The notes: generated from the sequence alone by a model not told the origin. Counted from the stretch's first letter, positions 7,230-64,000 are shown. The stretch is 64,000 nt of DNA from a virus (IMGVR_UViG_647533160_000003); one strand, 5' to 3'. Translations and numbers: made by a program.

Positions 7230-7266
7230 ATATAGACACAATCCCTCCTGATTTACACAAGCCCTA

Positions 7267-7279
7267 AAACAATTTGTTT
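7267..7279. promoter_or_regulatory. 13-bp palindrome AAACAA-N-TTGTTT (site 1)
   Basis: aaacaatttgttt. Confidence 0.6.
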
Positions 7280-7317
7280 TCTACCTTTTGTTGATTGAGA
7301 TAATAAGCCACATAAGA

Positions 7318-7330
7318 AAACAAATTGTTT
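7318..7330. promoter_or_regulatory. 13-bp palindrome AAACAA-N-TTGTTT (site 2), 14 nt upstream of ATG 7344, preceded by GATAAT
   Basis: aaacaaattgttt. Confidence 0.6.
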
Positions 7331-7343
7331 CGGAGTGGTTGAA

Positions 7344-7643
7344 ATGTTGAACATTACCCAAGCCTACCAGGTGGCATTGATCAGTTCATCTCATACATCA
7401 GAGGAAGATGCTCGCCGATTCATGATCGCAAGCAATGAACTGGATTGGGTTTCACAAATTGAGTACGGTTGCATTGTCCACGCCGGGTTACAGGACGATG
7501 ACTGGAAAGATAACTTGCGTCGATATGGTATATCCGAGGGCGCGATTTCGAACATTCAGAAGGTACTTGATGTAGGCTTCGACTCTGTACATTTCGATTG
7601 TGGCGCACCGGTCGTTGAAGGGCTTGAGTGCTGGCAATGGTAA
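7344..7643 (+). CDS. Hypothetical early protein
   Basis: ORF (track 7335, GTG) with GGAG RBS 8 nt before ATG 7344; preceded by conserved palindrome at 7318-7330. Confidence 0.55.
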   Translation: MLNITQAYQVALISSSHTSEEDARRFMIASNELDWVSQIEYGCIVHAGLQDDDWKDNLRRYGISEGAISNIQKVLDVGFDSVHFDCGAPVVEGLECWQW

Positions 7644-7679
7644 TCCGGCAATCGCTTCATACTAGATAACGGAGAATTT

Positions 7680-7865
7680 ATGCTTAAAGAAGACTCATAT
7701 CTACTAAAGGCGCTTGAAATGCGTGGCGTTGAACCTACAGTGAAAAACGCTCACGATATCTACCTTCAGTTTTCGACAGAGCTGAAACAGCTCATAAATA
7801 AATATGGAGTGAACGACTCCAGCGTCAAAGCCATGATAGATGATGAATTAGACCATCTCATCTAA
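7680..7865 (+). CDS. Hypothetical small protein (61 aa)
   Basis: ORF with RBS-like 'acggagaatttatg'; operon position after previous gene. Confidence 0.45.
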   Translation: MLKEDSYLLKALEMRGVEPTVKNAHDIYLQFSTELKQLINKYGVNDSSVKAMIDDELDHLI

Positions 7866-7959
7866 TCAAACCGTTGATAATGGCGGTCACAATTTGATTC
7901 TTTTCTATAAGAATCCGTTGATCGCCACTACTTCCCTTCCATACCCGCAATCACATCCT

Positions 7960-60683: not shown

Positions 60684-60808
60684 AGGTGAATGCTGGGCTG
60701 CGGATACGCCCGGCATCTTAGTATAAAGAACTATTGCACCTAAAATGATAAGTAGATACATACTTAAGTTTTTGTAAGAATACTTTCATCCGTTAGCTAG
60801 GAGTTGGT

Positions 60809-61591
60809 ATGAAAGAAGAAATTAAGAGATTAGCCTGCAACATCATTGATAAAACTGGTTTAGAAATCAGCGAGAGCAATCGGCTAGACATCATTGGAAA
60901 AGCCGTCAATACGGCAATGGATCATATCGCCACTCGTTTGGTCGAGATCCCGCTACCGGGGCTACCTTATCTGAAGGTTAAGTTGTGCGTATGGGGCGAA
61001 CCTGCACATGCACGACGTTCTGCATTAGTTGTTTTTGTACGCAAAGAAAACTTACGAACTCTAAAAGTGCAGGTTGGGACGTGGTTTGATGGCAGAGTCA
61101 TCTATACAGATACCATTATCTGTCCTCCAGGTGACGAACATATTGAAGCCGTTATTCGAGAATCAATTCGAGCTATGCGTAGTTTAGCTTTGCTGGAAGA
61201 CAAGCAAAACTTTGAAGATTACTTGCTGTCGGTAAAAGCTGAACCAACATTGTCTCTGAAAGCCGATTTCGTCACCCCGACAAATCTGTTGGAGGTTTTG
61301 ATTAATAAAGGGGCTAATGATGCTGTAAATCTAATCAGGGAGAGCGAATATTCGACTCTTTGGGACATGTGCAAAAGCCAGTTGGATCTTGTGCATATCA
61401 TTGTTGATGCGGGTAAGGCGTGTGATGGCGTAATGGCGGAATTTGCTGGGAAGATGGTCAGGATTGCTAACGAATTACCGATGATAGAGCAAGAGGCCAA
61501 ATCATACGCCACCAATCATGTCACAGAGCTTCTTGCCCCCTATCGCTTAGAAAGCGATCAGCGCAAGATGATTAGCTGGGGAAGTTGGTAA
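60809..61591 (+). CDS. Hypothetical protein
   Basis: 260-aa ORF with AGGAG RBS. Confidence 0.5.
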   Translation: MKEEIKRLACNIIDKTGLEISESNRLDIIGKAVNTAMDHIATRLVEIPLPGLPYLKVKLCVWGEPAHARRSALVVFVRKENLRTLKVQVGTWFDGRVIYTDTIICPPGDEHIEAVIRESIRAMRSLALLEDKQNFEDYLLSVKAEPTLSLKADFVTPTNLLEVLINKGANDAVNLIRESEYSTLWDMCKSQLDLVHIIVDAGKACDGVMAEFAGKMVRIANELPMIEQEAKSYATNHVTELLAPYRLESDQRKMISWGSW

Positions 61592-61658
61592 GCTCTCTGT
61601 GTGTCGTTTTTTACGCAAATAATGATAGGTAAGCACAAGATTATTTCTGGCGGTAATT

Positions 61659-62129
61659 GTGAAAGCTGATTTGTCAAAAATCCCTTCTATTTCAGGAAAT
61701 AACGGTTATTCACTTCGTTGTGAGGAAGTAAAGATAAACGGTGAGTCGGCATATTGCAGCTACTCCGTTTGCCAGCACACCATTCTTGCCTTCAAAGAAA
61801 ACCGTCTTCCTCGAACGTCTTTCCAGTCGTGCGCAACCGCTATTAAAGCAGGCAAATGCAAGGCGTTAAAAATGATGGTTGAAGAGATTCGTAAAGGAGA
61901 ATCTCTGTATTACGAAGATATGACCGCACTCATTAAGGAGGTTGAAGAACGGAATAAACAAGCCAGAACTATAAAACGAAAACGTGACAGTGTAACGATT
62001 AATAGCATGGTTAAGAAGAGCGCCACATCACAAACAGCGATCACTGACGTGTATGCGGCGTTGATTGAAGAAACAACAAAAGAAACACATGAGCAAATCG
62101 ATCAACATATGGAGGCAAAACAACAATGA
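61659..62129 (+). CDS. Hypothetical protein
   Basis: 156-aa ORF (GTG start); overlaps ligase start. Confidence 0.45.
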   Translation: MKADLSKIPSISGNNGYSLRCEEVKINGESAYCSYSVCQHTILAFKENRLPRTSFQSCATAIKAGKCKALKMMVEEIRKGESLYYEDMTALIKEVEERNKQARTIKRKRDSVTINSMVKKSATSQTAITDVYAALIEETTKETHEQIDQHMEAKQQ

Positions 62130-63448
62130 AAAAGTTGATCGCACTTAAGCATAAGCTGGACGAAATGAAAGCTATGGGAACCAATGCAAAAAAAGAGGCA
62201 TTGGCCAACATGGATGACTTTGAACAAAGCATGGTTTCATTGATGCTCAACCCTTTCATCCGTTTTGGGGTAAAGAAATACAAAGTGGCAGAGCCGCTTA
62301 GTGAGTCCGTCCCAAGTGACGAAAAAGCCATTGATGTACTGAATAAGCTGGCCTCTCGCGAGCTGACGGGGAACGCAGCAATAGCTGCTGTTGAGTCTAT
62401 CGTGGCGTCAATGTGCGCCGATGGGCAGGACGTCTTCCGTCGTTTCCTCTTAAAAGATCCGAAAGCTGGCGTTGGGATTAGCCTATGCAACAAGGTTTTT
62501 GAAAATCCCATTCCGAAATTCGAGGTGCAGCTGGCGTCACCGTATAAAGAAAAAGGCGACAAATACCCCTTCAAGCCAAACCCTAAAGCAAAATGGCCGA
62601 TGATTGGCAGCCTTAAGCTCGATGGTTTGCGAGTAATTTGCGAGGTTATTGTTGACGAAGAAGAGGTTAACTTCCTTTCTCGTACTGGTAATCCAATCAC
62701 GTCTCTCGATCACCTAAAGCCAGCCATGCTCGAATTAGGCAAACTTTCAGGCCACAAACACATCTTCTTCGATGGTGAAGGCACAGCCGGTTCATTTAAC
62801 CAGTCCGTATCTGCATTGCGCAAAAAGAACGTGCAGGCAATTGGCGCTATTTATCATGTTTTCGACTTCTTCCTACCGGAATGGCGAGCACAGGCTAAAT
62901 CCAAAGAGTATGCAAAGACAGGTATGAAGCTGAAAGAGCGCCTGGCTATGCTCGTGGCGTTGTTCAAAAACGATCGCAGTGAAGGCTACGCACAAGACAT
63001 TCACCTGCATCCGTTCTACATCATCCATAGCCACGAAGACTTCATCGAACGCTTCATGAAACGCCTGGACGATAACGAAGAAGGGGAGATGGGCAAAGAT
63101 CCGAACTCTGTTTACGAGTTTAAACGTACCCGCAGCTGGTGGAAGTTAAAAGACGAAGATTCAGAAGATGGTGAAATTATCGATTTTGAGCCGGGCGACC
63201 CGGACTCTGGTTTTGCCAACACGCTTGGGAAAATTGTTATTCGTCTTGAAAACGGCGTCATCGTTCGTGCGAGCGGCATTAAGCATAAATATCTGGACGA
63301 GATCTGGAACAACAAAGAGAAGTACCGTGGTCGTATTGTCGAGGTTCATTGTCACGAGAAAACACCTGATGGCAGCTTACGCCACCCACGACTGAAATGG
63401 CCGCGTTGCTTACGCGATACCGAAGATCGAATCGGAGATAAAGAATGA
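62126..63448 (+). CDS. ATP-dependent DNA ligase
   Basis: Adenylation motif I 'KLDGLR', 'FDGE', 'WWKLK', C-terminal 'LRHPRL'. Confidence 0.8.
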   Translation: MKKLIALKHKLDEMKAMGTNAKKEALANMDDFEQSMVSLMLNPFIRFGVKKYKVAEPLSESVPSDEKAIDVLNKLASRELTGNAAIAAVESIVASMCADGQDVFRRFLLKDPKAGVGISLCNKVFENPIPKFEVQLASPYKEKGDKYPFKPNPKAKWPMIGSLKLDGLRVICEVIVDEEEVNFLSRTGNPITSLDHLKPAMLELGKLSGHKHIFFDGEGTAGSFNQSVSALRKKNVQAIGAIYHVFDFFLPEWRAQAKSKEYAKTGMKLKERLAMLVALFKNDRSEGYAQDIHLHPFYIIHSHEDFIERFMKRLDDNEEGEMGKDPNSVYEFKRTRSWWKLKDEDSEDGEIIDFEPGDPDSGFANTLGKIVIRLENGVIVRASGIKHKYLDEIWNNKEKYRGRIVEVHCHEKTPDGSLRHPRLKWPRCLRDTEDRIGDKE

Positions 63449-63660
63449 TCGTATTAAGTAAACGGGAGAAAGAAACGCTTCATGAAATAAGTAAGTGGCC
63501 GGAGTTCCCTGAGTACTGGAAGCCTAAAACGCGAGCTAAGTTAGAGCGTTTAGGGTTGGTTGCAAACGTTTCTGAAACGTGGCGCTCGGCCAACTACCAG
63601 TTAACTGATAAAGGGAAATTATTGCTACAGCAATTAGTAGAATCAGGAGCCTTTAAATGA
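63445..63660 (+). CDS. Hypothetical small protein
   Basis: 71-aa ORF translationally coupled to ligase. Confidence 0.4.
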   Translation: MIVLSKREKETLHEISKWPEFPEYWKPKTRAKLERLGLVANVSETWRSANYQLTDKGKLLLQQLVESGAFK

Positions 63661-63809
63661 TTCCATACATCCCATTGGCTTTTATGGCTGGCTTCCTTAT
63701 CGGCTTCGGCATCTGTCATGATTTGATTAAGCAGGAACTTAAAACCAAAACACTGTGCATCGGAAAGCGCGTGTATCGAGTAGTTCATGAAACAAAGGTG
63801 AAAAAATGA
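63657..63809 (+). CDS. Small membrane peptide (~50 aa)
   Basis: ATG overlapping upstream stop; hydrophobic N-terminus; below ORF-track size cut-off. Confidence 0.3.
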   Translation: MIPYIPLAFMAGFLIGFGICHDLIKQELKTKTLCIGKRVYRVVHETKVKK

Positions 63810-64000
63810 GCATGTTAACTTCTTGGGAATGGTGGTTGGTCACCTATTTCTTAGCGGCCGGAGTCGCATTCGCCTTTTACGTAGGTCAGTTAGTCGTAAA
63901 ACTGTTGCTGATTAAATTTGCTAGTCATAAACGTATCGATGATGGTCTGTGGCGTCTTGGCACCCTGGTGGAAACTCGCTACGGGCAACTTAAGGAGAAC

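Follow-up and report, generated by a model that had tools for sequence, protein, structure and literature searches.

A 64-kb stretch of a probable SSU5/pHCM2-group phage-plasmid carrying metG as cargo

The 64,000-nucleotide stretch of viral DNA IMGVR_UViG_647533160_000003, analysed at its full length and called the window below, very probably belongs, over all its 64 kb, to a phage-plasmid of the SSU5/pHCM2 group (Escherichia/Shigella clade), which carries the methionyl-tRNA synthetase gene metG as cargo. Members of this group are temperate siphoviruses of ~108 kb that lysogens keep as low-copy circular plasmids, unintegrated. The SSU5 supergroup (SSU5_pHCM2 group) was defined by Pfeifer et al. 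2021 (PMC7969092). Its member Cyrano (= pLF82) is a plasmid present at ~5.5 copies per cell, from which siphovirus particles are made, more of them after ciprofloxacin (PMC9928086). The window is assigned to the group because of its nucleotide identity, colinearity and open reading frame (ORF) homology with known members. An initial annotation, made from the sequence of the window by itself, had proposed a phage-plasmid rather than a lambdoid prophage, and had placed the start of the element ~40 bp past the metG terminator. Identity and colinearity with the SSU5/pHCM2 group agree with the first of these proposals; the second does not hold, since positions 1-7240 are phage-plasmid DNA too, as seen from matches to complete genomes and to PLSDB.

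Relatives of the window

By megablast against phage records, Escherichia phages CMS-2020a and PhiR41_1 are 95-97% identical to the window, with 88-95% of positions 7240-32000 covered. Cyrano is 95-96% identical, with coverage of just 51% of 7240-32000 and 69% of 40000-64000. Salmonella phage SSU5 and Klebsiella phage-plasmids show ~80% nucleotide identity. Among plasmids, 841 PLSDB entries match the window, the top ones being E. coli plasmids of 105-115 kb typed as non-mobilizable, and about 200 closed circular E. coli plasmids (100-115 kb) are colinear with it at 95-97% identity. SSU5-group phage-plasmids are common: of 5,426 complete E. coli genomes, about 200 have one. In a BLAST synteny map both the closed circular plasmid pRHBSTW-00905_2 (CP056250.1, 112,626 bp) and Cyrano are colinear across the entire window; the gaps in colinearity consist of small accessory islands and a variable distal tail fibre, and of nothing else. 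The comparison with known phage-plasmid families that the initial annotation had recommended thus returned an SSU5/pHCM2 match.

The window is densely coded, mostly on the plus strand, and holds one run of Ns (5793-6703). Of 63 candidate ORFs, 53 have colinear homologues in SSU5, mostly at 80-99% amino acid identity, and 55 have homologues in Cyrano; the gene repertoire shared with SSU5 was judged from these ORF counts and identities. The domain scans (Pfam, PHROG, PADLOC, NCBIfam) took in 43 ORFs, among them all non-overlapping ones of 170 aa or more. ARAGORN found no tRNAs in the window, and no Rfam family reached its gathering score anywhere along it.

Cyrano (= pLF82 of adherent-invasive E. 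coli LF82; OV696614.1), CMS-2020a, PhiR41_1, p09EL50 (NC_018651.1) and pRHBSTW-00905_2 have backbones 94-98% identical to the window in nucleotide sequence and colinear with it. Shared with these Cyrano-type relatives are the apbC-metG cargo with its junctions, a ParA pair, the helicase, primase and ligase genes, and the virion and lysis genes. The window differs from them in a divergent allele (84%) of an FdeC-like adhesin gene and in the distal tail fibre (44559-47173), and it holds islands beyond theirs at 50658-52126, at 53313-55338 (PDC-S31 and PD-T7-5) and at 58846-60747 (a Sel1-repeat gene). The KacT toxin/antitoxin pair of Cyrano is not in the window. The type members SSU5 (NC_018843.1) and pHCM2 stand further off, at ~80% nucleotide identity over the conserved modules, and share with the window a palindrome found at terS, parA and dnaB; SSU5 is without apbC-metG, the FdeC-like adhesin, PD-T7-5 and an annotated integrase. 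P1 and N15 are alike in the logic of their lifestyle only, a temperate phage being kept as a plasmid that encodes a partition system of its own. Their gene repertoires are unrelated (P1 is a myovirus with type Ia ParAB and Cre/lox, and N15 is linear with a protelomerase), and no similarity of either to the window was seen.

metG as cargo, and the readings that compete with it

The gene metG (4012..7182, plus strand; tRNA-synt_1g, E 7e-166) is a phage-plasmid allele with 99% amino acid identity to both K-12 and Cyrano. To its left, on the minus strand at 2754..3854, lies the phage-plasmid allele of apbC/mrp, a gene for an iron-sulfur cluster carrier (PF10609, E 2e-102; 100% amino acid identity to CYRAN_99). 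Further left is the C-terminal part of an FdeC/invasin-like inverse-autotransporter adhesin gene (14..2293, plus strand; Invasin_D3 and Big_1 repeats), which is cut by the window start and is accessory cargo of the phage-plasmid. This adhesin gene is ~84% identical in nucleotide sequence to the genes that adjoin apbC in CP056250.1 and in p108_MLI108-3, and 76% identical to chromosomal fdeC. To the right of metG is the gene for a DUF5983 protein (7335..7643, plus strand; PF19419), whose SSU5 homologue has 46% amino acid identity.

The same arrangement is found in closed relatives. In p108_MLI108-3, pAVS0968-B, pRHBSTW-00905_2 and Cyrano the order, by RefSeq/ENA annotation, is adhesin or other cargo, a HumD/S24-like gene, apbC on the minus strand, metG on the plus strand and DUF5983/DUF1380, and in all four the surroundings of apbC-metG are phage-plasmid genes; the methionyl-tRNA synthetase of Cyrano is annotated as CYRAN_100. 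The apbC-metG pair is carried by 207 PLSDB plasmids (Escherichia 190, Shigella 6, Salmonella 5, Klebsiella 5), 202 of them non-mobilizable. Homology to the K-12 chromosome is confined to apbC-metG and ends exactly at both stop codons; in 20 other enterobacterial chromosomes it is likewise confined to these two genes. Left of apbC, ~43 nt match the apbC-flanking sequence of the plasmids. The region 6705-7800, which extends from the end of metG through the terminator and across the DUF5983 gene, is at least 80% covered in 200 complete E. coli genomes, with 95-96.5% identity among the matches listed; chromosomes match the metG portion only, and the 30 best matches all lie on records of 72-198 kb, mostly 100-120 kb. 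The junction itself (7183-7335) has 93-97% identity to its counterparts in closed plasmids of independent origin and in contigs from IMG/VR and from metagenomes. An exact 45-mer across it was found in no genome contig, 7 IMG/VR contigs and 4 metagenome contigs, none of them identical to the window.

Because the same apbC-metG pair and junction recur in about 200 closed plasmids and in Cyrano, metG is cargo of the element and not flanking chromosome. The boundary at ~7240 marks where DNA captured long ago from a chromosome ends within the element, and is neither an attachment site nor a misjoin. A tandem arrangement of metG was also considered, and set aside, for a record of 155.9 kb in which the junction occurs twice: the region displayed is ordinary, and the record is linear, of ~1.4 unit lengths, and probably an over-assembled circle.

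The initial annotation had also noted that no integrase is present. This is correct for the window, in that no recombinase domain was found in any of the 43 scanned ORFs. It does not extend to the element. The integrase of Cyrano (CYRAN_44) adjoins the repressor (CYRAN_45) at a position 3-4 kb past the end point of the window, and the missing integrase is for this reason a window-edge effect rather than a property of the element. In Cyrano's own coordinates, integrase and repressor occupy 41090-42574, between the tRNA cluster, which would fall just past the right end of the window, and a cobT-like gene; RepA lies ~23 kb past that end. At the corresponding position SSU5 has no annotated integrase, and the Cyrano-type recombinase seems, from this pattern of occurrence, to be either cargo specific to the clade or a switch of lifestyle. 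As to its function, it is most likely a recombinase for multimer resolution or lifestyle.

An ordinary prophage that is integrated beside the chromosomal metG and has integrase and att site past the window would draw some support from the integrase that relatives carry just past the right end and from the fact that apbC and metG are normally neighbours on the chromosome. It is nonetheless very improbable. Both flanks of apbC-metG are phage-plasmid DNA, with the FdeC-like gene and ~43 nt on the left and DUF5983 on the right, and the arrangement recurs in about 200 closed circular plasmids and one phage genome, so that the integration at metG by an unseen mechanism that had been suggested is contradicted within the window. 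The apbC gene is 82% identical to that of E. coli, against 97-99% to phage-plasmid alleles. No repeat of 7184-7334 that could serve as an att site, such as the initial annotation had suggested looking for, was found within the window; an operator-like palindrome alone recurs. Of the integrase or excisionase, att repeats and chromosomal flank that an integrated lambdoid prophage would have, none was found in the window, all non-overlapping ORFs of 170 aa or more having been scanned for recombinase domains. A chimeric join of chromosome and phage-plasmid at ~7200-7300, the other explanation offered initially, has even less to recommend it. The source assembly is a scaffolded draft in which an N-gap whose 225-bp flank is duplicated lies only 0.5 kb from the junction, and a host with two metG paralogues could confuse assemblers; yet independent plasmids and contigs carry the junction at the identities given above, and metG on either side of the N-gap is of phage-plasmid type.

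A defective, plasmid-only SSU5-like derivative that has lost virion production or regulatory genes is the least improbable of the competing readings, although still unlikely. Relatives disrupted by insertion sequences exist, for instance pAVS0968-B, in which the portal gene is split by ISEc52 and tail genes are replaced; ~45 kb of the element lies outside the window; and metG is interrupted by a gap. On the other side, the head, connector and tail ORFs through J all have their full length and match their counterparts in virion-producing Cyrano at 95-100% identity, the tail fibre excepted; for the lysis genes the identity to Cyrano is 84-99%. Some points do weigh against the window being part of an intact phage-plasmid. 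With the Cyrano integrase, repressor and RepA as tblastn queries nothing was found in the window, and the element may be a deleted or defective one; the N-gap and duplicated flanks bear on the integrity of metG in the window. The extrachromosomal state and virion production of this element are predicted from its relatives.

The N-run in metG (5793-6703, 911 nt) lies between two direct copies of 225 bp (5568-5792 = 6704-6929), which correspond to metG nt 1557-1781, the second copy having one extra A in a homopolymer run. The insertion totals 1137 nt and the reading frame is kept. No part of the metG sequence is missing (nt 1-1781 and 1557-2034), although the gap splits it, and the metG genes of relatives are uninterrupted, at 2034 bp. 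Gap and duplication are probably a scaffolding or gap-edge artefact, possibly provoked by two metG paralogues in the host; a real in-frame duplication of 1137 bp is the less likely account of them.

Over its first 1779 nt, metG of the window is 94.6% identical to K-12 in nucleotide and 99.2% in amino acid sequence, with a ratio of nonsynonymous to synonymous substitution rates (dN/dS) of 0.014. Among phage-plasmid metG alleles dN/dS is 0.012-0.021, at dS of 0.10-0.23, and the range quoted for comparisons of the window's metG is 0.014-0.03. These low values indicate strong purifying selection on metG. The two genes of the cargo disagree in their affinities. Identity of apbC to K-12 mrp is 82% in nucleotide sequence; the apbC-metG intergenic/promoter region is 66% identical to K-12 and 100% identical among phage-plasmids. 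This divergence of apbC and intergenic region from K-12 is at genus level, as far as Citrobacter, with 97-100% conservation among phage-plasmids. Phage-plasmid metG alleles, for their part, are only 95-98% identical to one another, and chromosomal and phage-plasmid alleles interleave when ranked by similarity. This disagreement between apbC/intergenic and metG identities suggests that host copies of metG have converted the phage-plasmid allele. A mosaic cargo, with apbC and the promoter region between the genes derived from a donor outside Escherichia and frozen since, and with metG repeatedly overwritten by chromosomal gene conversion, is a tentative reading of these comparisons and is on the whole doubtful.

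Partition, replication, virion and accessory genes

The partition pair (52285..53312, plus strand) has 92-93% amino acid identity to SSU5_033/034. Its first gene (52285-52953, plus strand) encodes a Walker ParA that is ParF-like (type Ib), with Pfam matches to AAA_31, MipZ and CbiA above the cut-offs. At 222 aa the protein fits the small type Ib Walker ParA proteins (~200-220 aa, no N-terminal helix-turn-helix), and its best solved relatives are ParF of TP228 (4dzz) and a short chain deposited as ParA, both at E ~3e-10. The partner (52953-53312, plus strand; 119 aa) has a basic, disordered N-terminal tail. It has no Pfam match and nothing significant was found in a PDB sequence search; one weak, sub-threshold match is to the ribbon-helix-helix (RHH) family aCcr1. 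In a single-sequence AF2 model (predicted local distance difference test, pLDDT, 67) residues 1-47 are disordered and helices span 48-59, 70-84 and 86-118. The Cyrano depositors label the homologue a RelE/ParE-like toxin. The partner is plausibly a ParG-like RHH centromere-binding protein, to judge from this model and the aCcr1 match. The pair had been annotated initially as ParA/RHH; the ParA half is confirmed by its domains and its likeness to ParF, and the RHH half stays at the level of plausibility.

The replication genes named initially are all recovered. The DnaB-like helicase (56296-57636, plus strand; DnaB_C, E 4e-13) is followed by the DnaG/Toprim-like primase (57646-58899, plus strand), whose matches to DnaG_N, Toprim_2 and TIGR01391 are weak and under the curated cut-offs, and which is 97% identical to the annotated primase of Cyrano. 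The ATP-dependent DNA ligase (62126-63448, plus strand; PF01068) has 100% amino acid identity to Cyrano and 91% to SSU5. The superfamily 2 (SF2) helicase (16562-18121, minus strand; DEAD/ResIII, UvsW-like) has 99% and 92%, respectively.

The lambda-like virion module, likewise described from the outset as running from terminase to tail fibre, has Pfam matches from TerL through the tail fibre. The structural, packaging and lysis gene set of a tailed phage is complete in the window. Packaging, head, connector and tail tube genes (21574..31274, plus strand), assigned by Pfam and by 95-100% amino acid identity to Cyrano CYRAN_1-12, comprise TerS, TerL (22206-23462, plus strand; Terminase_6N/3/6C), portal, scaffold-like DUF6651, major capsid protein (25999-26874, plus strand; Pfam), an Ig-like decoration protein (26948-27868, plus strand; Pfam), adaptor, closure and neck proteins, and an Ig-domain tail protein. 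The lambda-like tail module (31330..48093, plus strand; Pfam and synteny) comprises chaperones, a tape measure of 1528 aa (31984-36570, plus strand; TMP_3 and lambda C-terminal domain), M, L (36998-37729, plus strand; E 1e-96), K (37695-38519, plus strand; NlpC/P60 and JAB), I, J (39112-43842, plus strand; Pfam) and a long tail fibre of 1385 aa (43936-48093, plus strand). The variable distal part of the fibre, 44559-47173, is the reason that its alignment to Cyrano is limited to 767 of 1385 aa, at 86% identity. The lysis cassette (49327..50621, plus strand) holds holin, endolysin and Rz, with 99%, 99% and 84% amino acid identity to CYRAN_22-24 and 80-95% to SSU5_026-028. Portal, TerS, connectors, holin, endolysin and Rz were assigned through 84-100% amino acid identity to annotated genes of Cyrano. 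Directly upstream of terS are genes for two tandem ParB_N-domain proteins, an ABC-type ATPase and a phrog_886 protein (18204..21101, plus strand; 88-99% amino acid identity to SSU5_125-129), for which packaging, a second partition system or DNA modification may be the role.

A palindromic element, AAAACAA-N-TTGTTTT, gives 19 strand hits in the window against 0.31 expected and is absent from 81 chromosomal loci. Copies lie at 7266, 7317, 9387, 9861, 10763, 10814, 11299, 21495, 21520, 52236 and 56263. The DUF5983 gene, several of the early genes, terS, parA and the dnaB-like gene each begin 20-55 nt downstream of such a site, which comes right before the Shine-Dalgarno sequence and start codon. 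Several of the copies at early genes are preceded, at a distance of ~12 nt, by a GATAAT box, and at two sites a second palindrome covers the -35 position; upstream of the DUF5983 gene (7266..7331) two palindromes bracket such a -10-like GATAAT box in the sequence context. In SSU5 the palindrome is kept upstream of terS, parA and dnaB, at 55, 80, 30448, 34384 and 42728 of the SSU5 stretch examined. Judged from placement and conservation, the element is likely to be the operator of a family-wide regulator; beside the partition operon, where a type Ib system would have its centromere repeats, the copy at 52236, upstream of parA, was the one element noted. We know of no earlier description of it.

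Accessory regions differ more among relatives. The defence island (53318-55314) appears as a synteny gap, being found neither in Cyrano nor in CP056250.1 (pRHBSTW-00905_2). It consists of a DUF2971/PDC-S31 candidate (53318-53908, plus strand; PADLOC PDC-S31, E 3e-32) and a PD-T7-5 gene (54118-55314, plus strand; PADLOC PDLC04110, E 1.5e-139, 342 of 346 model positions), the latter predicted to act in anti-phage defence. A gene for a Sel1-repeat protein of 381 aa (58891..60036, minus strand; PF08238, E 1e-53; phrog_8741) is inserted after the primase gene, before the conserved one that follows, and is not in Cyrano, SSU5 or CP056250.1. Genes for two proteins, phrog_2594 and phrog_3307 (50947-52122), occupy the position of Cyrano's KacT toxin-antitoxin pair. 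A FljA-like protein of the phase-1 flagellin repressor family (13882..14403, minus strand; PF03614, E 2e-68, full length) has 69% amino acid identity to SSU5_121, and its gene is conserved in SSU5 and Cyrano. By its family such a protein could down-regulate host flagellin in lysogens; no literature linking fljA with SSU5/pHCM2 elements was found. Among ten unnamed proteins NCBIfam gave the weak DnaG and aCcr1 matches and otherwise nothing useful. Between 7880 and 8760 lie ~900 nt that are ORF-poor, A+C-rich and G-poor on the plus strand, with weak GCCATT(A/C)CCC repeats at a spacing of 80-135 nt; this region is ~95% conserved in relatives, unannotated in RefSeq plasmids and without an Rfam match.

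Proposed lifestyle and significance

With its virion, packaging and lysis modules complete, the element would exist in the lysogenic state as a low-copy circular plasmid. The ParF-like ParA and its small partner would serve segregation, and the DnaB-like helicase, primase, ligase and SF2 helicase would supply replisome parts of its own. The ~45 kb past the window should hold, going by relatives, a RepA/RepB initiator, a repressor, a tyrosine recombinase, tRNAs, Pol III alpha and nucleotide-metabolism genes. On the same grounds replication would be of theta type from the RepA/RepB initiator, lysogeny would be controlled by the helix-turn-helix repressor, and the tyrosine recombinase would probably serve multimer resolution. 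The element would be extrachromosomal and inducible by SOS/DNA damage, as shown for Cyrano. The apbC-metG pair was captured from an enterobacterial chromosome, and through it the host would gain a second methionyl-tRNA synthetase gene.

Both this kind of element and its metG cargo are already known. Tam et al. in 2024 reportedly found that expression of phage-plasmid metG produces a tolerant or persister subpopulation in Shigella sonnei. According to the passages of PMC12452169 that refer to their study, an extra metG is carried by the phage-plasmid pWPMR2 of Shigella sonnei (Tam et al. 2024), and expression of phage-plasmid metG gives an S. sonnei subpopulation predisposed to cephalosporin resistance. 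Going by such descriptions, on which the comparison rests, pWPMR2 is, like the element in the window, an SSU5-group phage-plasmid of Escherichia/Shigella with an extra metG. In a UK survey 18% of the S. sonnei and 17% of the S. Typhi isolates carried SSU5-group elements; the survey names pWPMR2 with metG unmentioned, and lists PD-T7-5 among the defence systems of the Escherichia/Shigella clade J (bioRxiv 10.1101/2025.09.12.675607). The same survey reports that no defence systems were detected in the pWPMR2-like clade K, whereas the window carries PD-T7-5, and because PD-T7-5 is present the window fits clade J better.

To the known cargo of the family the window adds a PD-T7-5 gene and a divergent adhesin, and the picture of the family is unchanged by them. 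The mosaic origin of apbC-metG, if true, would explain the unusual variability of phage-plasmid metG alleles, and would provide a 2-kb patch of homology for occasional RecA-dependent contact with the chromosome; on that view the 225-bp duplication around the gap might even be a true structural variant of metG. More generally, phage genes next to a housekeeping gene need not mark the edge of a chromosome; in this element metG and apbC travel as mobile cargo, and extra metG has been linked to antimicrobial tolerance in epidemic Shigella (PMC12452169).

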